From NCBI GenBank assembly GCA_963664405.1, contig OY761158.1, positions 2,592,001 to 2,656,000 on the forward strand: a stretch of 64,000 bases of DNA. The letters run 5' to 3'. Shown here in pieces: positions 1 to 19,689 of this stretch. The position numbers were made by a program, and so were the translations under genes. Under the pieces are notes generated by a model. That model saw only the letters and a program-made list of their open reading frames with translations, was not told where the DNA came from and ran no database searches. The stretch is from Thermoanaerobaculia bacterium (GTDB taxonomy: Bacteria; Acidobacteriota; Thermoanaerobaculia; Multivoradales; Multivoraceae). Every line of letters begins with the position of its first letter. Within the stretch, counting starts at the first letter, position 1.

Positions 1-100
1 GAATCGCATAGCTCGAGGTCATTCTGTTCGCTGGCCAGGCGCGCCGACGCAGGCATATTGAGCGACTTCCGCCTGCCCAGGGCAGAATGTTCGGCTGGCA

Positions 101-951
101 GTGCGACACGAAGGAGGAATCTGATGACCTGATCGAAAGACAGAGATAGGAGACCTCTGGGTCTCGAAGGCCGGCGGGTGAAAGTCCCGCCCGGGGAGTT
201 GTCGGTACACCCCGGTAGCCGCCGGAGCAGTCGATTCGGGTGACCGTCCGGCTGAAGCCTCCGGAACATCTGGATTAAGTCCAGAGGGCAAAGGTGCAGG
301 CCGCAACGCGAGTGAACCCTGAGAAGGCCCCGAAAGTTACTTGCTGGAGCCGACCCTCCTGCCATAAGGGGAAGGCCGCCGCTCGGCGGAGGAGCAACCG
401 ATCGTTGAATCCGTCGAATCCAGCCGGGGTAGTGGGGGTGGCATGTACCGAAGGTCTTTGAGGCAACGTGTGAGACCCACGTCGGTGGCGGGTTGCGACC
501 GCCAACCGGGAAGGCGTAAAAGGCCGTTCTCGGGCCGGGGTGGGAGTCGGAGGGGCTCGAAGTACTGATGAAGCCGGGTAACTCCGGTGGAGGGAAGGAG
601 CCCTAGTTCTGGTGCGCTTTGGAAGGAGAAGGAGACCGGGATTGACGCAAGTCTAGGAACCCGAATGAGTCAAACGACTCCGGAAGAAGCTCTGTGACAA
701 GGCCAAGCGAGAGGACGGTACAAGCTCCGATCGCAAGGAGCCGCCCGGCTAGATCGGGTCGAGGGGAACGACTCGCGAATGCCTTGTCGTGAAGCCAGTC
801 CGGGAGCCGTGTGCGGGAGAACCGCAAGCACGGTTCGATGAGAGGCGGCGGGAAACGGAGCCAAGGACAGGAGAGTGAGGCACTCGCAACCGAAAGGGCG
901 AGAAAACAGATGGGCCTGACCTACAGCCACCGCGCCCGCCGTCGACTCCAC
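101..951 (+). mobile_element. Group II intron, ORF-less (RT gene internally deleted)
   Basis: 5' GTGCG at 101; domain V GAGCCGTGTGCGGGAGAACCGCAAGCACGGTTC at 804-836; long domain VI ending ...GACTCCAC at 951. EBS1 TGCCA (360-364) pairs with exon TGGCA (96-100); EBS2 GAACAT (264-269) pairs with ATGTTC (87-92). Residual IEP-like peptide VKRLRKKLCDKAKRE near 670-715. Confidence 0.92.
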
Positions 952-976
952 CCTTAGCCAGCCAGCAGCAGGGGCC

Positions 977-1004
977 GAAGCCTGAAGCCTGTAGCCCGAA
1001 GCCT
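977..1004 (+). repeat. Heptamer tandem repeat (GAAGCCT-like x4)
   Basis: GAAGCCT GAAGCCT GTAGCCC GAAGCCT read directly. Confidence 0.7.
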
Positions 1005-1107
1005 GCGCGGCCGCTCGAAGAGCCCTGAGCTACTTTGGTTGCGGCCCGCGGCCGCGCTAGGATTGAAAGACTTGAGAGGATGACAGTGGTGATGACAGAA
1101 TTGGGAC

Positions 1108-1401
1108 ATGGCCGTTTCAGAGGATGCACCCTTTGTTGATGTGAGAGAGGCAGCGCGAGTGCTGGCGGTGTCGGAGTCTACGGTCTGGCGGCAGATTCGG
1201 CGCGGCAGCCTTCCCAGCGTTCGACGAAGAGGCCGCCGACTGATTCCGCGACACGCCCTCGAGGCCTACTCCTACAGGCGGGATCAAGAGGAGGTTCCTG
1301 CCTTGCGCCGGGACCATCCCATGTTCCGCCTGGTCGGAGCGGGGCGCTCCGGCGGATCGACGCCGGGAGCGCGCGACAAGTACGGCGTCCTGAGCGAATG
1401 A
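1108..1401 (+). CDS. Excisionase-like HTH protein, putative antitoxin
   Basis: VREAARVLAVSESTVWRQIRRGSLPSVR HTH_17-like motif; ATGA overlap with the downstream PIN gene. Confidence 0.8.
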   Translation: MAVSEDAPFVDVREAARVLAVSESTVWRQIRRGSLPSVRRRGRRLIPRHALEAYSYRRDQEEVPALRRDHPMFRLVGAGRSGGSTPGARDKYGVLSE

Positions 1402-1808
1402 GACGTTGGGTCCTGTGGGACTCGAGCGCCGTTCTGGCCCTGCTCGACGCGGACGACGCCGATCACCAGCCGGCTGTCTCTGTTGCGGAGCGTATCGCTT
1501 CCGAAGAACGCCCGAGCTTCATCACCAACTACATTGAAGCCGAAGCGCACGCTCTCCTGCTGCGTAAACTCGGCAGGTCTCTGGCAAGGGAGTGGCTAAT
1601 GAGCGGTGGCCTCCCCGTGCTCAGAGCTCAAGCCAGCGAAGAGCAGCGCGCCAAAGAGATTCTCTCCCGCTACGCAGACAAGGACTGGAGTCTCTGCGAC
1701 GCCATATCATTCGCCGTAATGAACGGCCGCGAGGTGAGAACCGCTTTCAGCTTCGACCACCACTTTCGACAATACGGCCGGTTCCGAGTCTGGGGTCTTT
1801 CAGAGTGA
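1398..1808 (+). CDS. vapC: PIN-domain VapC toxin
   Basis: WDSSAVLAL, E, SLCDAISFAVM and AFSFDHHF PIN motifs. Confidence 0.9.
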   Translation: MRRWVLWDSSAVLALLDADDADHQPAVSVAERIASEERPSFITNYIEAEAHALLLRKLGRSLAREWLMSGGLPVLRAQASEEQRAKEILSRYADKDWSLCDAISFAVMNGREVRTAFSFDHHFRQYGRFRVWGLSE

Positions 1809-1886
1809 CAGACCGAACCGCGTGAGCGCGTTCTATTCGCTCAGGATGGCCTGGTTCACCGTCAGCGAACCACGCATAGCCCAGAC

Positions 1887-3240
1887 CTACTCCGCACAGC
1901 GATAACTTTCGGCGGAACTTGGATCACCCCCTTTAAAATCCGCAAGCTGCGGAAACGGGCAATGCCTGCGCGTAAACGCACCATCCGGTCGGGAGCCAAT
2001 CAACTCGGTTGGGGCCTTTCCTTCTTCGACCCACTCAACCAACGGCGCCAAATAATCGACCACGTGAGCGCCAGGGCCTCCTCTACAGTGCTGCATTCCG
2101 GGTACCATGAAGAGCCTAAAAAACTCGGCCGCGCGCTCTGCCCCGCCGTTGGCCGCAATCACCTGATCAAGATAGTCGATGGCGCGTTGAGGGCGTAGGG
2201 GGTAATCGTTCCAGCCCTGATACATCAGAACCTTGCCACCGCGCGCTCGAAAAGCTGAGAGATCCGCCGTGTGCACATCGACAATCGCCGAAGCTCGGTT
2301 CCAGTGCAAGTCCGCTCGGTCCCTATTGACGTCGAACTCTGAACTATCGTACGTAAGATCGCGGTAAACCCAATATTTCAAGATGTCGTCGGCAGCCATG
2401 CCATTGAGCCTCCCCGCCAAAACCTCTCCGGTAGTGGGAACAGTGGCATTTGGCAAGGCCCACAAGGCCCAGTCGCCATGTCCCTCAGCTCCTGGCATCA
2501 GACCCGGTGAGAGCAGTTCGCCGCTCTCCGCGACGACACCTCGGTAGTGCTGCTGCACCGTGGCCAACTGACCCGCGGATAAGCACGTCGATGGGTTCTG
2601 GCCGGATCTGCAGTGCAACGTCGCGGGGTCGTAGTGTTCGTCAGTACACAAGCGGGGATCATTGATGACGCCGTCCTCGACTCCATCCAGGGTATCGCAA
2701 GCCCGGCGCGAAGCGTCTCCCAATAGTTTCAGCTCCGCCTCCTCCAATGGGTGGGCGTTCTGAGCGCGATCAGCCATGAGCACCCACAGCAGGAACTCAT
2801 CGTAATGAAACACCGGAGCACCAGCGACGATACCGTCGAAATCCTCAGGAAACCGGGTCGCTTCAATCATGCCCTGCCGCCCGCCATTGGAGCAGCCCTG
2901 ATAGTAGGAAAACTGAATCTCTCGGCGATAGAAAGCTGTGATGATTTCCTTGGAGAGCTGGGCGACCAGATGCACGGCGCGGAAGGCAAAGTCCAACGCC
3001 GCATCGGCTTGCAGGACAAAATCAATTGAACTCCCTTCATGTCCTGTATCCGTAGAGGACATGGCATAACCCCGGGCAAGCTCTGTAGTCGTGTCGGCAA
3101 TATAGCCCGAATTGCCGCCGGTGCCGACCATGAGAAAGCGGCCATTCCAATCGCGTAGCGGCATGCGAACTTCAAAACGAATGGCCCGGTTCAGCACGCC
3201 CCGTACGGCGCAATGCTCGGGGACGTAGCGCCCAGCTGGT
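1887..3240 (-). pseudogene. Tannase/feruloyl esterase family hydrolase, 5'-truncated
   Basis: WNGRF, GCSNGGRQG, FDGIVAGAP, GGKVLMYQGWND, FMVPGMQHC; no signal peptide or credible start; abuts a TPR fragment. Confidence 0.82.
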
Positions 3241-3247
3241 CCGGACC

Positions 3248-4389
3248 GTGGACGGCAGAGAACTCTGGTCGGAGCACTACGACCGAGAGCTGGGCGATGT
3301 CTTCGCCGTCCAGGACGAGATCGCCGTTGCGATCGCCGAGGGAGCGACGGCGAAGATCTTGCCGCCACCTGCTCGCCCGGGGGGGGGGAGGGACTCACCG
3401 ACAACCAAGAGGTCAACTATCTCTTCCTGGAAGCCCAGCATCATCGTGTACAGGGGCACCACGGGGACAGGGAACGGGCCATCGAGCTCCTGGAGCGGGC
3501 GCTCGTCTTGGAGCCCAACTTCGCCGCCGGCCACGCTCTTCTTGCCCTGTGCTACAACAATCTGGCCTTCTTTAGTCTCGCGGCGACCGAGCAGGCTCGC
3601 TCCAAGGCGGAGACAGCAGCGGTCCGGGCTCTCGAGCTCGACGACTCGCTGGCCACCGCGCAGGTGGCCTTCGGGGTCGTCCGTTCCTGCTGCCACTGGG
3701 ACTGGGCGGGCGCGCAGCGAGCACTCCGGCGCGCCATCGAGCTCGATCCCGGAGCCCCGGGACCCCACTACTGGTATGCCATGGCCTGGCTCGCTCCCCT
3801 CGGCCGCCTCGAGGAGGCCGAACGAGAGTTGAGGACTTCTATCGAGCTCGACCCTTTGGCACCGCCACGTAGTTGGTCTCTCGCGCACGTCCTCTTCTGG
3901 TCGCGGCGCTACGATGCCGCCCTCCTCGAGCTCCGCCATGCGCTGGAGCTCGATCCGGGATCCCGCACAGCGCGTACTGCGCTCGCAATCGCTTACACGG
4001 CCCTGGAAAGCTGCGAGGACGCGCTGCCAAAGCGCCGGATCCTATTCGAGAGCCTGGGACAGCATGAGGTGGTGCAGGAAGCGGCTCGGATCTACCAGTC
4101 GGCCGGGGAAGAGGGAGTGCTCCGTTGGCTGTTCGAAGGGCGGCTACCACCTGCGAAAGCGAGCGACGATCACGTCTTCCACCAGGCCTGTTTGTTTTCC
4201 CAACTCGGCGAAAAAGAGTCCGCCTTCTCCTGCCTGGAGCAGGCCTTCGCCCGGAAGAGCGGCTGGATGCTCTACACGAAGGTTCTTCCCTGGCTCGACA
4301 ACTTGCGCTCCGATTCTCGCTTCGATGCCCTTCTCGAGCGCATGGGAGTCAACGATCCACGGGTAGCGACAGCGGGGGCGGTCGTCTAG
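3248..4389 (+). pseudogene. TolB-like/TPR protein C-terminal fragment, frameshifted
   Basis: LWSEHYDRELGDVFAVQDEIA, then after a G run near 3380 TPR repeats (RALELD, RAIELDP) and LDNLRSDSRFDALLERMG; N-terminus missing. Confidence 0.78.
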
Positions 4390-4578
4390 CATCTGGAGGC
4401 GTAGATTCAGACCGACAAGAAAGGCGGTTGTCAATCCGTCTCCTCCCGTTCCGGCCTCTCGCTACCGCCGTGCTCGCGCTCGCGGTGAGCGCCGCCTTCG
4501 CGTCGCCCAGCGGCCCCACGTCATCATCGTCATGACCGACGACCAGGGCTACCCCGAGCTTTCGGCGCACGGCAATCC

Positions 4579-4594
4579 GTAGTAACGTTGCTAC
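4579..4594. promoter_or_regulatory. Putative TA operator palindrome
   Basis: GTAGTAACGTTGCTAC (14/16 self-complementary) just upstream of the antitoxin RBS. Confidence 0.55.
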
Positions 4595-4608
4595 AATCAG
4601 GAGGCGAG

Positions 4609-4866
4609 ATGGCCACGAAGAAACTCACAAGCCGGGAATTCAACCAGGACACAGGTGGCGCCAAGAGGGCCGCCGAGTCAGGACCGATCTACATCACCGA
4701 TCGAGGTCGGCCCTCCCATGTGCTGTTGACTTTCGCCGACTACCAACGTCTCGCCGCGAACCAGCCGGGCATCATCGAGCTGCTCTCAGAACCGGAAGGA
4801 GTCGGGGACATCGATCTGGAAGTCGCGATCTCCCGTGAGCTACCTCAGCCTGCACGCTTCGACTGA
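4609..4866 (+). CDS. Phd/YefM-family antitoxin
   Basis: SREFNQDTGGAKRAAESGPIYITDRGRPSHVLL; AGGAGG RBS. Confidence 0.9.
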   Translation: MATKKLTSREFNQDTGGAKRAAESGPIYITDRGRPSHVLLTFADYQRLAANQPGIIELLSEPEGVGDIDLEVAISRELPQPARFD

Positions 4867-5285
4867 TGTTCATCCTCGACACCAACGTCGTCTCGGAGCT
4901 CCGCAAGGCCAAGGCAGGCACAGCCAACCCCGGGGTCACCGAGTGGGCCATTGAAGTCCCGGCATCGTTGATGTTCCTGTCGGTGATCTCGCTTCACGAG
5001 CTCGAACATGGCGTGCTCCTGGCCGAGCGTCGCGATCCTGCCCAGGGCAGCGTTCTACGCCGGTGGCTCGACACCAGCGTCGCCACGGCGTTCGCCGATC
5101 GGTTTCTGCCCGTCGATGAGCCGGTCGCTCGACGAGCGGCCGCATTGCATGTTCCCGACCCGGCACCCTTTCGGGACGCCCTCATCGCCGCGACGGCGCA
5201 TGTGCACGCAATGACCGTCGTTACACGGAATGTGAGGGACTTCGGTCGTTTCGTCGGGCTCCATGTCACGAACCCCTGGACCTGA
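4866..5285 (+). CDS. vapC: PIN-domain VapC (FitB/StbB-like) toxin
   Basis: FILDTNVVSELRK, RDALIAATA, VVTRNVRDF. Confidence 0.92.
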   Translation: MFILDTNVVSELRKAKAGTANPGVTEWAIEVPASLMFLSVISLHELEHGVLLAERRDPAQGSVLRRWLDTSVATAFADRFLPVDEPVARRAAALHVPDPAPFRDALIAATAHVHAMTVVTRNVRDFGRFVGLHVTNPWT

Positions 5286-5376
5286 AAAACCGACTTGGTA
5301 TCTCCAATAGCTCACATTCGTGCCGTATGAATCAAGTTGCTATCGAAGTGAACTCGTGCTGGGTGGACGCCCGGCC

Positions 5377-6150
5377 CTAGGTAATCGTCGCCTCGACGTA
5401 GCCGAACGCGGACGAGACAACCTCCACGTGAGTCTTCTCACCCAGTGGCAGAGCCGGCCCGAATGCGCCGGTCAGGAGCGTTTCGCCCTTACGGATCCGC
5501 CGACCGTCCGCGGCCAGCTTTCCCACCATCCAGACTACGGCCCGCAAGATATCGCGTGGCCAGGACAGCGAGGGCCACGAATCAACCACCTCACCGTCGA
5601 AAAGCACCACCAGGTCCGTGGATAGTGACGTGGCCGGCGCCGGGCTCCCCACGCCGCGAACGACCCCGGCATGAATCGCATTGTTCGCAATCAGCTCGTG
5701 GCCCCGCGGTGGCTCGCCCCTCATCATCAGATTGTGCAGCTCAATGACCGGGAAGATCCGGTCGATTGATTTCGAGAATGTGTCGATCGTGACGGAGTCC
5801 GGGTTGATGTCGCGGCCGAGGGTAACCGCAAATTCACCTTCGATGGCGATGTTCGCAAAGTCCCTCTTCGAGAGCTTGGCGCCATTGACATGCTGCTCCG
5901 TTGACCAGAGCCGTGCCCAGACCGGATGCGAGAGTCCGGTGGACCGCTGATTCGCCGGGTTGATAGCGCCGATCTTGTATCCGACCAACTGCTCGCCGCG
6001 CTGCTCCCTCAGATCGGCAACCGCAGCCTGTAGCTTCCAGGCGTCATCGACCGACAGCCGCAGCCCTTCGCCAAACACGGTGCCGGGATCTCTGGCATCG
6101 TAGTCGCGCAACATACGTTCGGCCAAGGCGGCAAAATCGGGTTCTGGCAT
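5377..6150 (-). CDS. 2-keto-4-pentenoate hydratase-like (FAH superfamily)
   Basis: GEQLVGYKIG, IEGEFAVTLGRD, LIANNA, GETLLTGAF. Confidence 0.85.
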   Translation of the reverse strand: MPEPDFAALAERMLRDYDARDPGTVFGEGLRLSVDDAWKLQAAVADLREQRGEQLVGYKIGAINPANQRSTGLSHPVWARLWSTEQHVNGAKLSKRDFANIAIEGEFAVTLGRDINPDSVTIDTFSKSIDRIFPVIELHNLMMRGEPPRGHELIANNAIHAGVVRGVGSPAPATSLSTDLVVLFDGEVVDSWPSLSWPRDILRAVVWMVGKLAADGRRIRKGETLLTGAFGPALPLGEKTHVEVVSSAFGYVEATIT

Positions 6151-6320
6151 CGGATTCCTCGGTTTCGGGAGACGTACAGCGTATTCGAGCAGGGGACCTA
6201 GAGCGAGCGTTCTCGGTGGAAGCCGGCCGGTGAGCGTCTAGGATCCGGAACCTCAGAATGGATCATCGCGATTAGGAGCATAGCGCTATGCGCGTACCAT
6301 CCGGTGTCACCACAACGCCC

Positions 6321-6527
6321 GGCAGCCTTCGGCTGCCAAGGTGCCAGCCGAGTATTCTGCCCTCCACTCGGGGAGGGATTTGCAGCCGAGCGGTCAGCCC
6401 GCAGGGATGATCGCGAACGCCCAAGATCCCGTTGGGGCTACCTGCGCGCTGCGCGCGCTGGTATCCCCAAGTAACCCTATTTTGAACACCCCTAAGTATC
6501 GCTATTTTGAACACCTGGATGGATTGG
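6321..6527. repeat. About 200-bp structured repeat, copy 1 (intact), with tRNA-Glu 3'-end sequence
   Basis: Close match to 9322-9347 + 10858-11037. Contains ATCCCGTTGGGGCTACC (6426-6442), TGGTATCCCCAA (6459-6470) and CTATTTTGAACACC twice (6477, 6502). Confidence 0.88.
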
Positions 6528-6727
6528 CTGACTGGGCTTGGCAAGCTGAGACGAGTCCTCCAACAGGGATGATCATCACCACAAGCCGAGGAGAAGATCG
6601 GGGATCTTCCGGGATCTTCTGGTCGGAGAGACCTCCTTCCGACTCGTGTCTGCCGCCTTCTCGTGCACTACGTGATTCGCAACTAGCTCTCGACGCGTGA
6701 GTTAGCGTTCGGCCGATTTATCGCACC

Positions 6728-7312
6728 CTACGCCCGCAACTTGAAGCGGCGAGGCGGCCGACTCGGTGACACGTGGTTCTTGGACGAAGTCTTCGTGAAT
6801 ATCCAGGGCCAGCGGCAGTATCTCTGGCTTGCCATCGATCAGGAGGGAGATGTGATCGACATCCTCGTGCAGCCACGCCGAGATCGAAGAGCAGCGGAAC
6901 GCTTCTTCCGCAAGCTCTTGAAGGGCCAAGGGGCAGAACCGGTGCTCCTGGTGACCGACAAGCTGAGGAGTTATGGCGCAGCGCATCGGACCACCATGCC
7001 CTCCGTCAGGCACGATACGAGCCAGTACGCGAACAATCGGGCTGAGGTCTCCCATCAGCCGACCCGCCAGCGAGAGCGACAGATGCGCCGCTTCAAGTCG
7101 CCCGGCCAGGCGCAGCGATTCCTCTCCGCTCACGGAGTCATCCAGAACCTTTTCCGCGTCGGGCGGCACCTCGTGAGCGCAGGCGACCACCGTACGCTGA
7201 GAGATCGTTCTTTCGGCGTCTGGCGGCAGGTGACGTGCGCCTGCTGAATCCGAGCCGACCAACCCTTGATAACGCCAGATCTCGCCTCGGCCAAGGCCAA
7301 GTTGACAGTGCC
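6728..7312 (+). mobile_element. IS6-family element, 5'-truncated
   Basis: WFLDEVFV, TDKLRSY, NNRAEVSHQPTR (ORF 6741-7247); right IR ...GTTGACAGTGCC. Confidence 0.9.
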
Positions 7313-7322
7313 GCGCGGAGAC

Positions 7323-8825
7323 CTAGTCTGCGGCCCGTACGTCTTCGTTGAAGACCTCGCCGGTCACCCCGTAGTGTCGGAATGTCGCGGTGGGGACACC
7401 GTCGAGCCTCGACACCTCGACGGCTAGAAAACCGCCCTTGGGCCGGTAGTAGAGCAGCTGGGAGTGATCGGTGTTCGCCATCGTCGTTGCGTGCACGTCG
7501 GTCGAGGGGCCGGACGAATACTCCAACATCCCCGTCTCGTGGTGTCGCGACACATACTGCCAGTGGCGATCACCGGTTATGAAATACATGTTCTTCTGTG
7601 CGCTGATGAACTCACGCAGCATGTCGCCTTCGTGAGACCACTCGGGATCCGCATGATTGTCCGACAGGTCGGCCTTCCACAGATGATCGGGGCCGACCAT
7701 GGGTGTCGGGCTGATCAATATCCTGAAGGTGGCATCCGAGGCCTCGACCGTTTGCTTGAACCAGGCGACCTGCTCCTTGCCCCACATCGTCTTTTGCGGC
7801 CCGTCCGGATCGTGATTCGGGCTGCGGAAGTCGCGGACCTCGACCAGCCAGATCTGCAGATCCTTGCCCCAGCGAAAAGTCCTGTACCGGCGCTCGCTCA
7901 TCGGCACCTGCTCACCGTAGACCAGGCCGCCCTGTTGGTAGGTGAAGAGGCCCATCCGTGGCGGCATCGTCGGCCAGCAGTCGTTCTGCCATGAATCGTG
8001 GTCGTCTTTCATGAAGTAGGACGGCACCGCGTTGTGAAAATCGCGAGTATTGGGCAGACCGAACAGCCTGTTCCATCGGAACCGTGCCAGATCGATGTGC
8101 GTCGTGTAGGGGTCCAAAAGGTCGTAGTAGACGATGTCTCCAGTGTGGACGAAGAATTCGGGTCGGAGGGCCAGCATGGCTCGAAAGAACTTGTGACCCT
8201 TGTCACCGTCATCCCGTGAGCTGTGGCGTGTGCCGGTGACGACGGTGAAGAGCACTCGGCTCGAGCGATCTTTCGGCGGCGCGGTCTCGAAGGAGCTGCG
8301 CAGGACAGCGCTTATCGGGCTCGCGGCGCTCTTTCTGCCTTCGACCGTCAACGAATACTCTGTGTCGGACTTCAACCCCTCCAACTTGAAGTGCCTGGTG
8401 AAGTCCCTGTCGTCCTCGACCGGCGTCCAGCCCAATACCCTCTTACTGTCCTCGTTCCCTCTCTCTGTGAAGGTGACTCTCACGTCTCCCTTCGTGCCGG
8501 GCACCGCCCCCGCTGCCTCCTCCAGGGACGCTCCCTGTGGTAGCTGAAATGCGTAGCCACCGGACGGTCCCATCTGCTCGTCGAGGATGTTCGCGTTGAC
8601 GAAGAAGTCCTTCTCTCCGAAGTTTCTGAACAGGATGCCTTCGGGGTCCGGTGCCGCTACGCTCGTCAACCGGGTCCAGACGATCACGCTGTCGGAGGTG
8701 AGCTCACCGATCTTGATGCCGTTGCCCATGTACACCCCCGAGTCGTCCTGGGCGCCGCAGAAGCCACTATGCAGTCCGAACAGCACGACCAGGGATAGCG
8801 TGACAAGTTGCTTTCGATCAGGCAT
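7323..8825 (-). CDS. Alkaline phosphatase D (PhoD)-family secreted metallophosphatase
   Basis: Signal peptide; VIVWTR, FFVHTGDIVYYD, KDDHD, GDRHWQY. Confidence 0.88.
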   Translation of the reverse strand: MPDRKQLVTLSLVVLFGLHSGFCGAQDDSGVYMGNGIKIGELTSDSVIVWTRLTSVAAPDPEGILFRNFGEKDFFVNANILDEQMGPSGGYAFQLPQGASLEEAAGAVPGTKGDVRVTFTERGNEDSKRVLGWTPVEDDRDFTRHFKLEGLKSDTEYSLTVEGRKSAASPISAVLRSSFETAPPKDRSSRVLFTVVTGTRHSSRDDGDKGHKFFRAMLALRPEFFVHTGDIVYYDLLDPYTTHIDLARFRWNRLFGLPNTRDFHNAVPSYFMKDDHDSWQNDCWPTMPPRMGLFTYQQGGLVYGEQVPMSERRYRTFRWGKDLQIWLVEVRDFRSPNHDPDGPQKTMWGKEQVAWFKQTVEASDATFRILISPTPMVGPDHLWKADLSDNHADPEWSHEGDMLREFISAQKNMYFITGDRHWQYVSRHHETGMLEYSSGPSTDVHATTMANTDHSQLLYYRPKGGFLAVEVSRLDGVPTATFRHYGVTGEVFNEDVRAAD

Positions 8826-8875
8826 CGGTGTGTCTCTCTGTTGTGAGTCGGTTTAGGTGCGGGCGACAGATGGAT

Positions 8876-9269
8876 CTAAGGTTTCACATCGGCCGCGTCC
8901 GGCAGCTCCTCGTCGACGCGGAGCCAACCGATCTTCTCGTGCCGAAAGTCGTGAAAGCCCGCCGGAAAGGCGCCCGGGTCGTCGAAAATGCCAAGCGTAA
9001 TGTAGATGCGCTCGGGGCGCGGCTTGAAGCCGAAGCACAGGCTCGACCCGCAAGTCGGGCAGAAGCCCCGCCAAGCGCGCGCGCTCGAGTCGTATCGTAG
9101 CAGGCTCCGTCGACCATCGAACCTGGTCGCTGGCGAAAGTCGCGAACGTAGCCACCACGGCGCCTACCGCCCTGCGACACATTTCGCAGTGACAGTGGGT
9201 GACTCGACGCGGAGGACCCTCGGCTTCGAAGCGGGTCGCGCCGCAAAGGCAGCCGCCGGTGATGGTCAT
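8876..9269 (-). pseudogene. GFA/CENP-V family protein, one frameshift near 9098
   Basis: GGCLCG and HCHCEMCRR in one frame, RGFCPTCGSSL in another. Confidence 0.8.
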
Positions 9270-9360
9270 TGGCAGTTGAATTGTACTCGGGAGCTGAATC
9301 TTGCGTCGGCTGGCCAGGTCAGGCAGCCTACGGCTGCCAAGGTGCCACACATTAGAAGGC

Positions 9361-9769
9361 CCGAGTCAAGCGAGCTCATCTCTCCTGGTCCGGCCTCCTG
9401 GGCCGGCGTTTTTTTCGGGACGAGGGCTTTTCTATCCCGTTCACGAGCTCGCTCGATGGCATCCGGGTTCTCTTCGTTGAGGGTGTCGGATCGAGTCCGC
9501 ACCAGCCACACATCAGGATCTAGGCCCGTGGGCTCGTTAGAGCATGGGGCCCCACGCGCCAGGCGCGCTAGAAAACCGTTGGGTTGACCGATCCACATCC
9601 ACGGGGTGAGTGACAGTCGATTGGGCTGCCCGTAAGGGCTCCAGCACCATTTGGCTCATGGATCGGGCGCATCGTCGAGCTCGAGAAGACGGAGGAAGAC
9701 CGGGGCGTTCCATTCACCCGACTGGGCTTGGTTGCCAGCACCTAGTACGGTTCGGCCCCGGCCTTCCGA
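9361..9769 (-). ncRNA. Putative seekRNA/bridge-RNA region
   Basis: About 410-nt non-coding, hairpin-rich segment downstream of the recombinase, where IS1111 elements carry their guide RNA; boundaries unknown. Confidence 0.6.
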
Positions 9770-10764
9770 TCATCCAAAGGCTCGTTCGGGTTCAAAGGGC
9801 ACTTGATCTCGCATCACGTAGTAGCAAGCCCTAGCGAGCTTGTTGGCTAGGGCACGGATCGCCACGATCCGGTGGGTCTTGGCGGCCTTGCGCTCGACGT
9901 ATCTCCGCGCGAGGGGCTCGAGGCGGATGGCGAAGTGGGCCGCTTCGGTGAAGGCCCAGGACAAGTAGGGATTGCCATTGCGCTTGGCGTTGCTGATCCG
10001 TGCGGTGCTCACGCACCGACAGTAGGAGGCAAAGTTCCCCACCTTGGCGAAACGCCGGATGTCGCCCACCTCGCACATGATCGTAAGCGCGATCGCCTCA
10101 CCAATCCCTCGCACGGTCTGGAGCAGGCGAAACTCCTCGCGCAGCTTCGCCTCGGTGAGCACGGCCTTCTCGATCCGTCGGATCTGAGCCGACAGCACGG
10201 TTGTGACCCGAAGCTGCGAGCTCATCGACAGCGCCACCCGGGGTCGTCGCAGAGCCTCTCGACCTCCCGCACCTTCCACTGTTTCATCTCGCGAGCCGTC
10301 ACCCGCACTCCGGTGTGCTGCTCGTAGATCGCCCCGATGGACAGCAGCAGCGAGGTGCGCTTGCGCACCAAAAAGGCACGCCGGCGTAGCAGATCCCGCC
10401 ACGGACGCTCCTCTTTCGGGTAGATGTAGCCCTCGGGCAGGATCCCCAGGCACAGCAAACGCGCCAGCCAACGAGCGTCGTCACGGTCGTCCGTGTACTT
10501 GAGGCCCTCGTATTGCTGCACCACCGAGGTATTGGTCAGATGGACCCGGTACCCGGCTTCCATCAGACCATCCACCAGCCAATACCAGTTGCGCGTCGAC
10601 TCAACGGCAACGCCCTCGACATCCTCCCGATACGGCTCGAGCCGACCCAGGATCTCGCCTAGCTCATTGCGTAGACGTCCTTGGCACACCGTCTTGAGCT
10701 CCTCGTCCAGAATCACCAAGTAGTTGTTGCTTGAATGCAGATCGATACCGCCGTACAGTGACAT
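9770..10764 (-). pseudogene. IS110 DEDD recombinase, frameshifted near 10230
   Basis: YGGIDLHS, AVEST, KYTDDRDDA, then GIG and GNPYLSWAFTEAA in a second frame. Confidence 0.88.
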
Positions 10765-10857
10765 CGGCTCCTCCTCTTCGTTGCGCTGCTTACACCGGCA
10801 GCTTGGTTTCCGCCGAGGCTAGCGCTACGACGGGGGGAGCCTTCTAGATGAGTTTCA

Positions 10858-11037
10858 TCCGAATATTCTGACACTCGAGCGGTGAGGGATTTGCAGCCGA
10901 GCGGTCAGCCCGCAGGGCTGATCGCGAACGCCCAAGATCCCGTTGGGGCTACCTGCGCGCTCCGCGCGCTGGTATCCCCAAGTAACCCTATTTTGAACAC
11001 CCCAAATAGCTCTATTTTGAACACCTGGGTGGATTGG
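10858..11037. repeat. About 200-bp structured repeat, copy 2 (left 26 bp at 9322-9347, split by IS1111)
   Basis: 10884-11037 aligns closely with 6373-6527. Confidence 0.88.
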
Positions 11038-11183
11038 GCCACTCAACTCGTCAAGCTGAAGCTCATGCTCCAACCCCGCTGATCGCCCCAGAAACAGAGG
11101 AGGAGTTTGGGCATCTTCCTCAGCCCCCGCGTTGTGGGCTGGACCTCCACGAAGCCGTTCTCCCGGGTGCCCAGACGGCGTAG

Positions 11184-11825: not shown

Positions 11826-12632
11826 GGTACTGTCAGGTTGAGCCTGTTGGTGGCAGAGTGCGCCCATGAAGAGCAGCACACTCAGCTACCGCGGCTATCG
11901 GTTCCCGCCCGAGATCATCGCCCACGCAGTCTGGCTCTACCATCGCTTCTGTCTGAGCCTTCGGGACGTCGAGGATCTCCTGGCGGAGCGCGGAATCACC
12001 GTCTCCCACGAGACCATCCGCCAATGGTGCCGGAAGTTCGGCACCGAGTACGCACGGAAGCTGAAGCGGCGGGGAGGCAGACTGGGCGACACGTGGTTCT
12101 TGGACGAGCTGTTCGTGACCATTCAGGGCAAGAGGCAGTACTTGTGGCGTGCTGTCGATCAGGACGGCGACACAATCGACATCCTCGTGCAGCCGCGCCG
12201 CGATCGGAGGGCAGCAGCGCGCTTCTTCCGCAAGCTGTTGAAGGACCAAGGAGCAGAGCCGCTGCGCCTGGTGACCGACAAGTTGAGGAGCTATGGCGCA
12301 GCGCATCGGACCACTATGCCCTCTGTCAGGCACGATACGAGCCAGTACGCCAACAATCGAGCGGAGGTCTCCCACCAGCCGACTCGGCAACGAGAGCGAC
12401 AGATGCGCCGCTTCAAATCGCCCGGCCAAGCGCAGCGATTCCTGTCCGCTCACGGAGCCATCCAGAACCTGTTCCGTCTTGGCCGTCACCTCGTCAGCGC
12501 ACCCAACCATCGTACGCTGCGAGATCGTTCCTTCGGCGTCTGGCGGCAGGTGACGTGCATCTGCTGAATCCGAGCCGACCAACCCTTGATAACGCCAGAT
12601 CTCGCCTCGACCAAGGCCAAGTTGACAGTGCC
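11826..12632 (+). mobile_element. IS6-family element, complete (transposase 11866-12567)
   Basis: IRs GGTACTGTCA and TGACAGTGCC; 233-aa DDE transposase starting YRGYRFPPEII; no flanking target duplication. Confidence 0.95.
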
Positions 12633-18883: not shown

Positions 18884-19689
18884 GGTACTGTCAGGTTGAG
18901 CCTGTTGGTGGCAGAGTGCGCCCATGAAGAGCAGCACACTCAGCTACCGCGGCTATCGGTTCCCGCCCGAGATCATCGCCCACGCAGTCTGGCTCTACCA
19001 TCGCTTCTGTCTGAGCCTTCGGGACGTCGAGGATCTCCTGGCGGAGCGCGGAATCACCGTCTCCCACGAGACCATCCGCCAATGGTGCCGGAAGTTCGGT
19101 ACCGAGTACGCACGGAAGCTGAAGCGGCGGGGAGGCAGACTGGGCGACACGTGGTTCTTGGACGAGCTGTTCGTGACCATTCAGGGCAAGAGGCAGTACT
19201 TGTGGCGTGCTGTCGATCAGGACGGCGACACAATCGACATCCTCGTGCAGCCGCGCCGCGATCGGAGGGCAGCAGCGCGCTTCTTCCGCAAGCTGTTGAA
19301 GGACCAAGGAGCAGAGCCGCTGCGCCTGGTGACCGACAAACTGAGGAGCTATAGCGCCGCGCACCGGACCACCCTGCCCTCCGTCAGACACGATACGAGC
19401 CAGTACGCGAACAATCGGGCTGAGGTCTCCCATCAGCCGACCCGGCAGCGAGAGCGACAGATGCGCCGCTTCAAGTCGCCCGGCCAGGCGCAGCGATTCC
19501 TCTCCGCTCACGGAGTCATCCAGAACCTTTTCCGCGTCGGGCGGCACCTCGTGAGCGCAGGCGACCACCGTACGCTGAGAGATCGTTCTTTCGGCGTCTG
19601 GCGGCAGGTGACGAGCGCCTGCTGAATCCGAGCCGACCACCCTTGATAACGCCAGATCTCGCCTCGACCAAGGCCAAGTTGACAGTGCC
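18884..19689 (+). mobile_element. IS6-family element, complete (transposase 18924-19625)
   Basis: Same IRs as 11826-12632; intact 233-aa ORF; no target duplication. Confidence 0.95.

Follow-up and report, generated by a model that had tools for sequence, protein, structure and literature searches.

A multicopy repeat bracketing Y1 transposase genes as the probable shared target of a group II intron and an IS1111-type element in an acidobacterial genome

Introduction

Passages of two reports document REPs as a target class for IS110/IS1111 elements (PMC1525189; PMC11187229), and among the repeat-targeting IS1111 members that they describe are ISPa11 in the REPs of Pseudomonas aeruginosa, IS4321/IS5075 in Tn21-family terminal repeats and ISKpn4/ISPst6 in attC. 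According to PMC11187229, the seekRNA module of IS1111 elements follows the transposase gene and carries its top-strand guide 5' of the bottom-strand one, and the usual length of IS1111 inverted repeats is 11–13 bp. For Pseudomonas putida KT2440, a section of PMC1525189 reports that ISPpu9 and ISPpu10 lie in REPs (7/7 each) and that two of nine group II intron copies are REP-associated. Convergence of the two element classes on attC, which the initial annotation of the present locus had invoked, also has a precedent, as an excerpt of PMC3001079 states that IS1111-attC elements and group IIC-attC introns insert near the attC 5' end, on the antisense strand. IS110/IS1111 elements in REPs and the pairing of an intron with an IS1111 element on attC are already known.

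Here we describe a stretch of 64,000 nucleotides (the window; contig OY761158.1, positions 2,592,001–2,656,000) from a Thermoanaerobaculia bacterium, in which a group II intron and an IS1111-type insertion sequence (IS) occupy copies of one short motif, termed the head. So far as the cited passages describe ISPa11, IS4321/IS5075 and ISKpn4/ISPst6, the window IS shares with them a DEDD and PF02371 transposase, subterminal inverted repeats, a long downstream non-coding region in which the top-strand guide comes before the bottom-strand guide, and insertion in a single orientation at a fixed point of a repeat that is multicopy and may fold. It differs in its host phylum, which the labels of its relatives indicate to be Acidobacteriota, in the repeat that it occupies and in the frameshift of the window copy. 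The arrangement also resembles that of group IIC-attC introns and IS1111-attC elements as described in PMC3001079, in that an intron and an IS1111 lineage have inserted within a few bases of each other, with matching strand sense, towards one end of a short, structured site present in many copies. However, the present target is not attC but probably the head of a Y1 element, integron integrases were not found in the genome, and the closest Rfam domain I–IV model of the window intron is RF02003. Like the portion of the P. putida KT2440 data described in PMC1525189, the present genome holds IS110-family elements and a group II intron in its repeats, but here 6/6 intron copies occupy one exact position and carry a matching EBS1.

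Results

The positions H1–H17 refer to a 17-base pattern read on the strand on which window positions 6340–6356 match it. The three motif copies of the initial annotation, one empty, one holding the IS and one inverted and holding the intron, were recovered at 6335–6359, 9341–9347/10858–10867 and 86–100/952–953, respectively. The empty copy (6321–6359, forward strand) consists of a 7-bp hairpin (6321–6337), a 2-nt spacer and the head itself (6340–6359), and is followed by a block of ~200 nt (6360–6560, forward strand) that recurs after the IS-holding copy (10871–11070, forward strand) and in part at other loci of the genome. The 25-mer originally offered as the shared motif has one match without mismatch, at 6335–6359, and 0 matches in 100 shuffles; it describes one subfamily together with half of the preceding hairpin, and the shared part of the target comes to ~12–14 nt.

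Genome-wide, the 14-base head core has 63 intact copies, mostly between genes, and the 11-base core occurs 81 times, compared with 1–33 times (median about 6) for thirty scrambled 11-mers. The 17-mer pattern occurs 22 times and, read backwards, not once. When genes were called crudely, 44 of 65 scanned copies of a 12-base pattern were intergenic, with 83% of the genome being coding by the same call; the other 21/65 lay within called genes and may in part be chance matches. The conserved part of the repeat is a head of 10–13 nt beside a variable hairpin: a short, GC-rich hairpin often precedes the head, and a hairpin of at least 6 bp ending within 8 nt upstream accompanies 24/63 heads, against 325/3000 random positions (11%).

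To which element does the head belong? The genome contains 13 matches to the Y1 (HUH) transposase family PF01797, 12 of them above cut-off. Most of these genes are bracketed by a forward head upstream and an inverted head downstream; by eye, 10/13 have a forward head, or one that differs from it by one base, ~40–260 nt upstream. No upstream head was marked for the Y1 open reading frames (ORFs) starting at 413432 and 1985621, and the upstream head of the Y1 gene at 6395956 is one split by the intron. The association extends to a sample of 80 Y1 loci from other genomes, almost all labelled Acidobacteriota, in which a forward head precedes the gene in 49/76 cases (opposite-sense control, 4/76; median position −56) and an inverted head follows it in 43/75 (control, 3/75; median position +262), the pattern being missing in about a third of these related loci. 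Dozens of further heads are gene-less and occur, mostly between genes, singly or as pairs about 60–90 nt apart. From these placements the motif is likely to be a REP-like repeat, the head that stands in inverted orientation at the two ends of RAYT-like Y1 transposase genes and marks their gene-less derivatives, and the same level of confidence covers the explanation as a whole, namely that the head of a Y1 element is the target of both RNA-guided elements.

The classical REP is a palindrome with a four-base head, and inverted REPs typically lie on either side of RAYT genes, whereas IS200/IS605 elements are not known to have inverted terminal repeats. The present system resembles REP/REPIN–RAYT systems in that a short repeat stands, in inverted copies, on either side of a Y1 HUH gene and is also dispersed in intergenic DNA, singly and as inverted pairs; it differs in having a head of 10–13 nt with a variable hairpin, 13 gene copies and proteins of about 300 amino acids that score below the RAYT model cut-off. 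Their best NCBIfam match is the REP-associated tyrosine transposase model NF047646, at 58.9 bits against a cut-off of 80, PF01797 scores 34.9 bits against a cut-off of 23, and the C-terminal half of about 170 amino acids is without a named family. The proteins fall below the RAYT cut-off and are twice the classical RAYT length, and may be plain autonomous transposases that have no association with REPs. A corresponding alternative takes the heads for the termini of an ordinary, currently active IS200/IS605-like family and its miniatures, as opposed to a REP/RAYT system with a domesticated transposase, in which case the targeting by intron and IS would be unchanged. Such a family would fit the sub-threshold RAYT score, the 13 gene copies with their nearly identical pairs, the absence of the 17-mer pattern from the 24 same-family genomes searched and the PDB profile matches, where the closest solved relative is an IS200/IS605 transposase (ISDra2 transposase, E = 1e-6; TnpA-REP, 4ER8, E = 1.7e-3). 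However, the ends are inverted here and the RAYT model outscores the IS200 model (58.9 versus 22 bits), and we consider this alternative possible but not probable.

The initial annotation had envisaged a new recombination site or a boundary of cassettes or islands, and an attC-like or other site-specific site served by a recombinase could attract both elements as attC does. In keeping with this idea, some head copies form imperfect palindromes of ~60–90 nt whose ends are conserved and whose middle varies, like attC, four same-sense copies form one run, 630–760 nt apart, near 6.212–6.214 Mb, and the genome has many tyrosine recombinase genes. However, no integron integrase in the genome profile search reached the cut-off (best score 122 bits against 265), and the matches to the integrase model skip its positions 181–235. 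Head copies are moreover scattered over the whole chromosome in both orientations, and the bracketing of Y1 genes, both here and among the relatives, points to a different owner. A recombination site of this kind is therefore improbable.

The element at 101–951 (851 nt, forward strand; RF02003, 99.7 bits at 172–311) is, by sequence comparison, an ORF-less group II intron copy with domain IV deleted. It is 96–98% identical to genome copies of 2035 and 2176 nt, and the ORF of 454 amino acids in the 2035-nt copy encodes reverse transcriptase and maturase domains (RVT_1, 140 bits; GIIM, 41.2 bits), with no endonuclease family listed; this reverse transcriptase/maturase ORF is deleted from the window copy. 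The domain V–VI model RF00029 scores above cut-off in the full-length sister copies and is not listed among the Rfam matches for the window copy, for which RF02003 is the closest domain I–IV model. The intron-holding head lies on the reverse strand, such that the complement of H3 onward forms the 5' exon (83–100, with H3–H17 running from 100 down to 86) and the complement of H2–H1 with the preceding bases forms the 3' exon (952–959, with H2–H1 at 952–953). All six intron copies in the genome are inserted between H2 and H3 and have an identical 10 nt before the 5' splice site, and in 3/4 complete copies the 3' exon begins with the complement of H2–H1. Sequences further out are unrelated among the six, so the insertions are independent.

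How might the intron find this position? The loop at 358–366 (forward strand) is a candidate EBS1, as its bases 360–364 exactly complement the last five bases of the 5' exon (IBS1, 96–100). In a 77%-identical paralogue, the homologous loop complements that paralogue's 5' exon over 7 nt without mismatch, with a compensatory change in the stem that closes it; in six further relatives from other genomes the loop again matches the element's own 5' exon. This covariation is a reading by eye. Recognition would accordingly involve 5–7 nt through EBS1, and no EBS2 partner was found. One close relative (L122) has only the last 5–6 exon bases in common with the window copy, and its 3' exon is unrelated.

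The IS (9348–10857, 1510 bp, reverse strand), whose ends were placed by homology with relatives, is the sole full copy in the genome. It separates the hairpin and H1–H7 (9322–9347, with H1–H7 at 9341–9347) from H8 onward (10858–10870, with H8–H17 at 10858–10867), both on the forward strand. A junction between H7 and H8 is seen in this copy and in 3/3 right-end remnants, which abut H1–H7, and the surroundings beyond the head differ among all four IS ends. The multicopy target shared by both elements that had been proposed from the window is thereby upheld, although the two insertion points, in the same orientation, lie 5 nt apart (H2|H3 and H7|H8) and not ~3 nt. Neither intron or IS copies in unrelated targets nor a motif found nowhere else, the outcomes that the initial annotation had set against its own proposal, was observed. 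The site preference of the IS is read from the remnants and relatives, there being one full copy in the genome. The base at H8 in the IS-holding copy falls outside the pattern.

The transposase gene (9770–10764, reverse strand) is not intact: it is frameshifted near 10240 into two overlapping ORFs, an N-terminal one (10222–10764; PF01548, DEDD/RuvC-like, 38.3 bits) and a C-terminal one (9770–10471; PF02371, 47.3 bits), whereas relatives have a single ORF of 342–375 amino acids. Because the frame is broken, the window copy is probably non-autonomous. Its inverted repeat of 8–10 bp, about 7–11 nt from the left end and 3–4 nt from the right end, is shorter than the range given in PMC11187229. About 420 nt downstream of the transposase gene are non-coding, and directly after the stop codon lies a putative seekRNA-like target-binding module (9694–9767, reverse strand) with a predicted 13-bp outer stem, a T guide at 9743–9738 and a B guide at 9721–9715.

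The guides and flanks of 16 IS elements were compared with mismatched guide/flank pairings. At a fixed place in the module, an 8-mer spanning the junction is found with 0, 1 and 2 mismatches in 4, 5 and 7 of the 16 elements, while at most one mismatch is seen in 4/238 mismatched pairings; a 6-mer that complements the right flank is free of mismatches in 11/16 elements versus 17/222 mismatched pairings. In sister IS elements, a different palindromic target goes with changes in both guides. Relatives in at least six other genomes have the same first six right-flank bases, and for this reason the IS lineage appears to be tied to the head. Recognition by RNA base pairing, as first suggested for both elements, is thus consistent with complementary segments in each that covary with the flanks of relatives. 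The B guide mismatches H8 in the occupied site, and H8 of the empty copy at 6340 also differs from it; the guide fits the other common head variant.

Could the short flank simply travel with the intron and the IS, or reflect segmental duplication, with no targeting involved? The conserved flank is indeed short in intron and IS copies (about 10 nt on one side and 2–7 nt on the other), but 63 intact heads are without either element, the flanks past the head are unrelated in the six intron copies and at the four IS ends, and the guide segments complement the flank and change with it in relatives, which makes this alternative very improbable. Least probable of all is a regulatory site such as a sigma-54 promoter exploited by the elements, since, despite a −24-like element in the head complement, which in all three window copies faces a gene start 60–190 nt away, the −12 tetramer is at the required spacing in 0/63 heads (its last three bases in 1/63) and the orientation to flanking genes is mixed genome-wide.

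Discussion

The explanation that we favor is that the head belongs to a Y1 element and has become an address for two unrelated RNA-guided elements. The Y1 proteins presumably act on the heads and would thereby keep them constant; a head that is constant, multicopy and located in dispensable DNA would be a good landing site for other mobile elements, and the group II intron and the IS1111-type element would each have adapted to it. In this model, the EBS1 loop would pair with the complement of H7–H3 and the intron would reverse-splice between H3 and H2 on the complementary strand. One IS guide would read H(−1)–H5 and the other H6–H12, with recombination between H7 and H8. The guides would need to be expressed and used, and intron and IS to be mobile here, now or formerly, the window IS being frameshifted and the window intron ORF-less.

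Why would this matter? If correct, the head would be a second natural site, beside integron attC, on which group II intron and IS1111 lineages converge, and the guide segments of both elements can be read in the sequence and checked by covariation. The head would also serve as terminal repeat to a family of long, RAYT-like Y1 transposases that is widespread in Acidobacteriota and of which we found no description in the literature searched. The IS relatives, with two guides changed together with a palindromic target, provide material on natural reprogramming. Understanding of either element class is unchanged, and the locus is best viewed as a tidy, testable example.

A more tentative proposal, and on balance a doubtful one, is that a guild of RNA-guided parasites, comprising IS1111 and endonuclease-less group II intron lineages, has specialized on the ends of another mobile family and tracks the head across genera of Thermoanaerobaculia-like Acidobacteriota. 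Its members may be hyperparasites, inactivating RAYT-like elements and curbing the spread of these, and the constancy of the head for its own transposase would then provide a durable address. The guides of both elements would read overlapping parts of the same 13–14 bases. An inserted element interrupts the head, and one such interruption in this genome lies immediately upstream of a Y1 transposase gene.

Copies of the head in the window and across the genome

The source genome is one contig of 6.78 Mb with 62.6% G+C, in which the window is G000:C1:2592001-2656000. The initial annotation described one short motif in three window copies, one empty, one holding an IS1111 and one inverted and holding a group II intron, and this description is confirmed. 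The 25-base motif has a single match without mismatch, at 6335-6359 (shuffles: 0/100), and this is the empty copy of the short repeat, hereafter the head, whose 17-base pattern is numbered H1-H17 on the strand read at 6340-6356. Direct reading of the IS-split copy places H1-H7 at 9341-9347 and H8 onward from 10858, with 1510 bp in between, while the intron-split copy lies on the other strand, with the complement of H3-H17 at 100 down to 86, an 851-nt insert, and the complement of H2-H1 at 952-953. The intron is inserted between H2 and H3 and the IS between H7 and H8, so that the two points are separated by 5 bases and not by the approximately 3 nt first estimated. The two elements share one orientation with respect to the head: the intron sense strand and the transposase-coding strand are each the complement of the H strand.

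An nhmmer profile of the motif is too short for its E-values to split copies from noise, and exact patterns were used. The 11-base core occurs 81 times in the genome (1-33 times, median ~6, for 30 scrambled 11-mers of the same composition), the 14-base core 63 times, and the 17-base pattern 22 times versus 0 for the reversed pattern; because the patterns are exact, these counts are minima where diverged copies are concerned, and a few intragenic matches may be fortuitous. A search for the 17-base pattern did not find it in 24 further genomes of this family and found it in 1 of 16 genomes of the order's other families. Copies of a 12-base pattern have mixed orientation relative to neighboring genes, and 44 of 65 are intergenic. 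The latter figure is approximate, because genes (83% of the genome) were called by a crude GC3 criterion that overlooked one or more real genes in the window. At 24 of 63 heads, a hairpin of 6 bp or more terminates no more than 8 nt upstream of H1, compared with 325 of 3000 random positions, and the stems of these hairpins vary among copies yet stay paired. Several copies are imperfect palindromes composed of a forward head, ~37-60 nt, and an inverted head.

Four same-sense heads spaced 630-760 nt apart (6212137, 6212894, 6213524 and 6214298), the last of which holds the intact intron copy, form the sole array-like run seen. In two window copies the head is followed by a block of ~200 nt (6360-6560 and 10871-11070; ~92% identity) that holds a 14-nt direct repeat. 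Parts of this block recur separately at 1670284-1670367, 4455108-4455379, 2726013-2726288 and 6332898-6332971 of the genome, so that it resembles a mosaic of smaller repeats or the internal part of an element that lacks a gene. Window 6741-7312 holds a truncated IS6-family transposase gene (PF13610, 125 bits), with a terminal inverted repeat near 7300-7312; this element has more than 12 genome copies of 80-99% identity, two more of them in the window near 12049-12632 and 19107-19689.

Proposed recognition of the head by the group II intron

The 851-nt insert (101-951) scores 99.7 bits against Rfam RF02003 (group II intron domains I-IV) over 172-311, and its start and end are typical of a group II intron. 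Six copies are present in the genome, comprising the window copy, complete copies at 6214298-6216332, 2890811-2892986 and 6396014-6401261, and 5' fragments at 1589105 and 2075364. In all six, the 5' splice site is preceded by 10 bases complementary to H12-H3, with one alternative at H8 in five copies and the other in one, and the sequence beyond these 10 bases is unrelated among them. The 3' exon is the complement of H2-H1 in three of the four complete copies and differs by one base in the fourth. The sole intact intron-encoded protein (454 aa, copy at 6214298) contains reverse-transcriptase and maturase domains, and no endonuclease family was listed for it at E <= 0.001.

How would the intron read this sequence? 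The ribozyme has a 9-nt loop (window 358-366) on a 4-bp stem, and bases 360-364 of this loop are exactly complementary to the five bases at the exon end (96-100). A paralogous intron of 77% identity (~884.85-886.83 kb, minus strand) occupies an unrelated insertion site, and there the homologous loop is complementary without mismatch to the final 7 nt of the paralogue's own exon, with a compensatory change in the closing stem. Matches to the intron were found in 16 of 401 class genomes, this one included, and in the 15 other genomes the 5' end and loop could be placed in eleven relatives. Reading by eye revealed 6-7 contiguous Watson-Crick or G-U pairs from the splice site in six of these (L122, L123, L125, L127, L129 and L136), 4 pairs in two (L128 and L131), and no convincing loop-exon pairing in three with uncertain 5' ends (L130, L132 and L138). 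The exact complementarity in the window, together with the matching change in the paralogue and relatives, indicates that the loop at 358-366 is EBS1, which would read H7-H3. Two close relatives in other genomes (L123 and L134) are inserted in sequences with similarity to the head's complement over 11-15 nt; L122 has just the last 5-6 exon bases in common, and its 3' exon is unrelated. Two candidates for EBS2 were rejected, the first being a complementary segment that is nevertheless conserved in the paralogue with its different exon, and the second a complementary segment 3' of EBS1 that is unconvincing; EBS2 is not claimed.

Two intron copies (1.59 and 2.08 Mb) have their sense on the minus strand and four (2.59, 2.89, 6.21 and 6.40 Mb) on the plus strand. 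Cumulative GC skew is lowest at 2.753 Mb and highest at 6.765 Mb, and dnaA is at 3.418 Mb. Five of the six copies would fit the replication-strand bias predicted for an endonuclease-less intron, in a small sample and with an uncertain origin.

The copy at 6396014-6401261 is 5248 nt long and contains, besides a further 275-aa ORF, another group II intron that belongs to a different Rfam type (RF01999, 108 bits) and has its own domain V-VI match and a 473-aa ORF. The outer intron interrupts the head upstream of a RAYT-like gene, 43 nt ahead of that gene's predicted start. In the window intron, 113 nt (839-951) separate domain V from the 3' splice site, and in a sister copy (L039, 2284-2483) the match to a 77-position Rfam domain V-VI model spans 200 nt, so domain VI seems to bear an insertion of ~85 nt. 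About 150 nt downstream of the intron-bearing head, window 1108-1808 contains HTH_17 and PIN-domain genes with a 4-nt overlap, an arrangement that recalls toxin-antitoxin pairs.

Proposed recognition of the head by the IS1111-type element

The 1510-bp insert contains two overlapping minus-strand ORFs that match PF01548 and PF02371, both of the IS110/IS1111 transposase domains. Alignment with the ends of relatives places its own ends at window 9348-10857, and it has subterminal inverted repeats and ~420 nt of non-coding DNA downstream of the transposase gene, described as defining features of IS1111-type elements in PMC11187229. The transposase is frameshifted near 10240 and its relatives are single ORFs of 342-375 aa; the window copy is probably dead or dependent on help. 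It is the single full copy in the genome, where other tblastn matches are relatives of ~30% identity, and relatives of 46-68% identity occur in 26 of 400 other class genomes searched. Three right-end fragments of 22-90 nt (5044683, 4203061 and 251792) each abut H1-H7 in unrelated surroundings.

In all relatives the stop codon is followed immediately by a module in which a long outer stem is combined with two variable segments, each at a constant position. In the window this seekRNA-like module (9694-9767, minus strand) has a 13-bp outer stem and an unremarkable fold energy (z = -0.98), and its top-strand guide comes first, which is the order reported for IS1111 seekRNAs (PMC11187229). The first guide (9743-9738) is the perfect complement of six bases running from H5 back to the base before H1, and the second (9721-9715) has the sequence complementary to H12-H6 of the head variant that carries the alternative H8 base; H8 is the sole mismatch to this guide both in the occupied site and in the empty copy at 6340.

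Guides and flanks were compared in 16 elements for which both flanks are known. An 8-mer corresponding to the last six left-flank and first two right-flank bases matches its own site with 0, 1 and 2 mismatches in 4, 5 and 7 elements, respectively; among 238 mismatched pairings, 4 have at most one mismatch and 178 have at least three. A 6-mer upstream of it, the complement of right-flank bases 3-8, is perfect in 11 of 16 and has one mismatch in 5, compared with 17 perfect among 222 mismatched pairings. A nine-element subgroup from other genomes sits in a different palindromic repeat, and both variable segments are changed accordingly. Sister IS1111-type elements in other class genomes (L014, L017-L022 and L024) are inserted in the 3' arm of another palindromic repeat, which is longer, and both of their guide segments have changed to match it, a clean natural case of guide reprogramming. 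The first six right-flank bases of the window IS recur in relatives from six other genomes (L011 and L145; L015; L016 and L148; L025 and L142; L026; L028), of which L015 and L026 lie, by eye, in full inverted heads; two further copies differ at the first right-flank base.

Neither insertion into unrelated targets nor a motif confined to the three window copies is what we observe: six of six introns, the full IS and three of three IS fragments lie in a head whose 14-base core recurs throughout the genome.

The head and RAYT-like Y1 genes

A further question is what the target itself represents. The genome has 13 matches to PF01797 (Y1, the HUH transposase domain), 12 of them over cut-off, in open frames of ~300-440 aa, and several adjoin motif copies already listed. 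The flanks of all 13 genes were read by eye over 330 nt upstream and 420 nt downstream. A forward head or one-base variant lies 40-260 nt upstream of 10 of them, and an inverted head or variant lies 220-320 nt downstream of many; for the ORFs that start at 413432 and 1985621, the reading marked no upstream head. The upstream head of the ORF at 6395956 is the one split by the 6396014 intron copy, and at the 2208825 locus the adjoining hairpin is likewise present at both ends.

This arrangement recurs in relatives. A protein-alignment scan of one genome per species returned 80 Y1-related loci of 46-54% identity, 79 of which are titled Acidobacteriota, Thermoanaerobaculia or Holophagales and one Solirubrobacterales. 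A forward head is present within the last 400 nt upstream of 49 of 76 genes (opposite-sense control, 4 of 76; median position -56), and an inverted head within the first 450 nt downstream of 43 of 75 (control, 3 of 75; median position +262), with 4 and 5 loci, respectively, omitted for short flanks. Heads bracketing Y1 genes both here and in relatives thus argue that the head is the inverted terminal repeat of a conserved RAYT-like element family, and the most plausible reading of the scattered single heads and head pairs is that they are gene-less derivatives, i.e., REP/REPIN-like repeats.

The proteins may be domesticated RAYTs or active transposases. A representative Y1 protein passes PF01797, and its top NCBIfam model is the REP-associated tyrosine transposase, at 58.9 bits below the cut-off of 80, with 22 bits for the IS200 model. 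Searched against solved structures, a ten-protein profile matches the ISDra2 transposase (E = 1e-6) and TnpA-REP of E. coli (4ER8, E = 1.7e-3), in each case spanning only the first 130-150 residues. One alternative is that these are ordinary active Y1 transposons with miniature derivatives rather than REP/RAYT; we regard this as plausible but less likely, and it would leave the conclusion on targeting unaffected.

Other readings of the head were rejected. If it were an integron-like site, an integron integrase might be expected; however, none of 29 genome matches to the integron-integrase model is over cut-off (best 122 bits versus 265), the matches skip the integron-specific insert, and head copies are dispersed in both senses. 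Carriage as a hitch-hiking flank or within a segmental duplication is ruled out by the 63 empty heads, the unrelated outer flanks and the internal guides. A sigma-54 promoter fails on the -12 tetramer, in place in 0 of 63 heads.

The first interpretation is thus supported in part. The proposal of a shared RNA-guided target is upheld by the guides and by the location of all copies in the head, whereas that of a new kind of safe-harbor or recombination site gives way to a terminal repeat of RAYT-like elements. The explanation as a whole, a shared RNA-guided target that is itself an ordinary kind of sequence, the end of RAYT-like elements, is in our judgment probable.

Comparison with known systems

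Insertion of IS110/IS1111 elements in REPs is well documented in PMC1525189, for ISPa11, ISPpu9, ISPpu10, ISRm19 and IS621, and ISPa11 is listed as an IS1111 member with a seekRNA (PMC11187229). A group II intron of P. putida is described as REP-associated in only 2 of 9 copies (PMC1525189). A full-text search of the largely non-subscription literature, by title and abstract, found no paper on a group II intron lineage specific for REP/RAYT ends or on the long RAYT-like family. The closest parallel is attC, which IIC-attC introns and the IS1111-attC group both target, close to one end and on the same strand (PMC3001079). The logic is alike, with an intron and an IS1111 element on one site, but here the site is a REP-like head in a different phylum and both guides are legible.

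The genome also contains seven tyrosine-recombinase genes of 308-316 aa (34968, 43271, 597025, 615289, 887344, 6274320 and 6759113), some of them identical pairs, that score 94-122 bits against the integron-integrase model with the specific insert skipped. One of the seven adjoins the paralogous intron at 885-887 kb.
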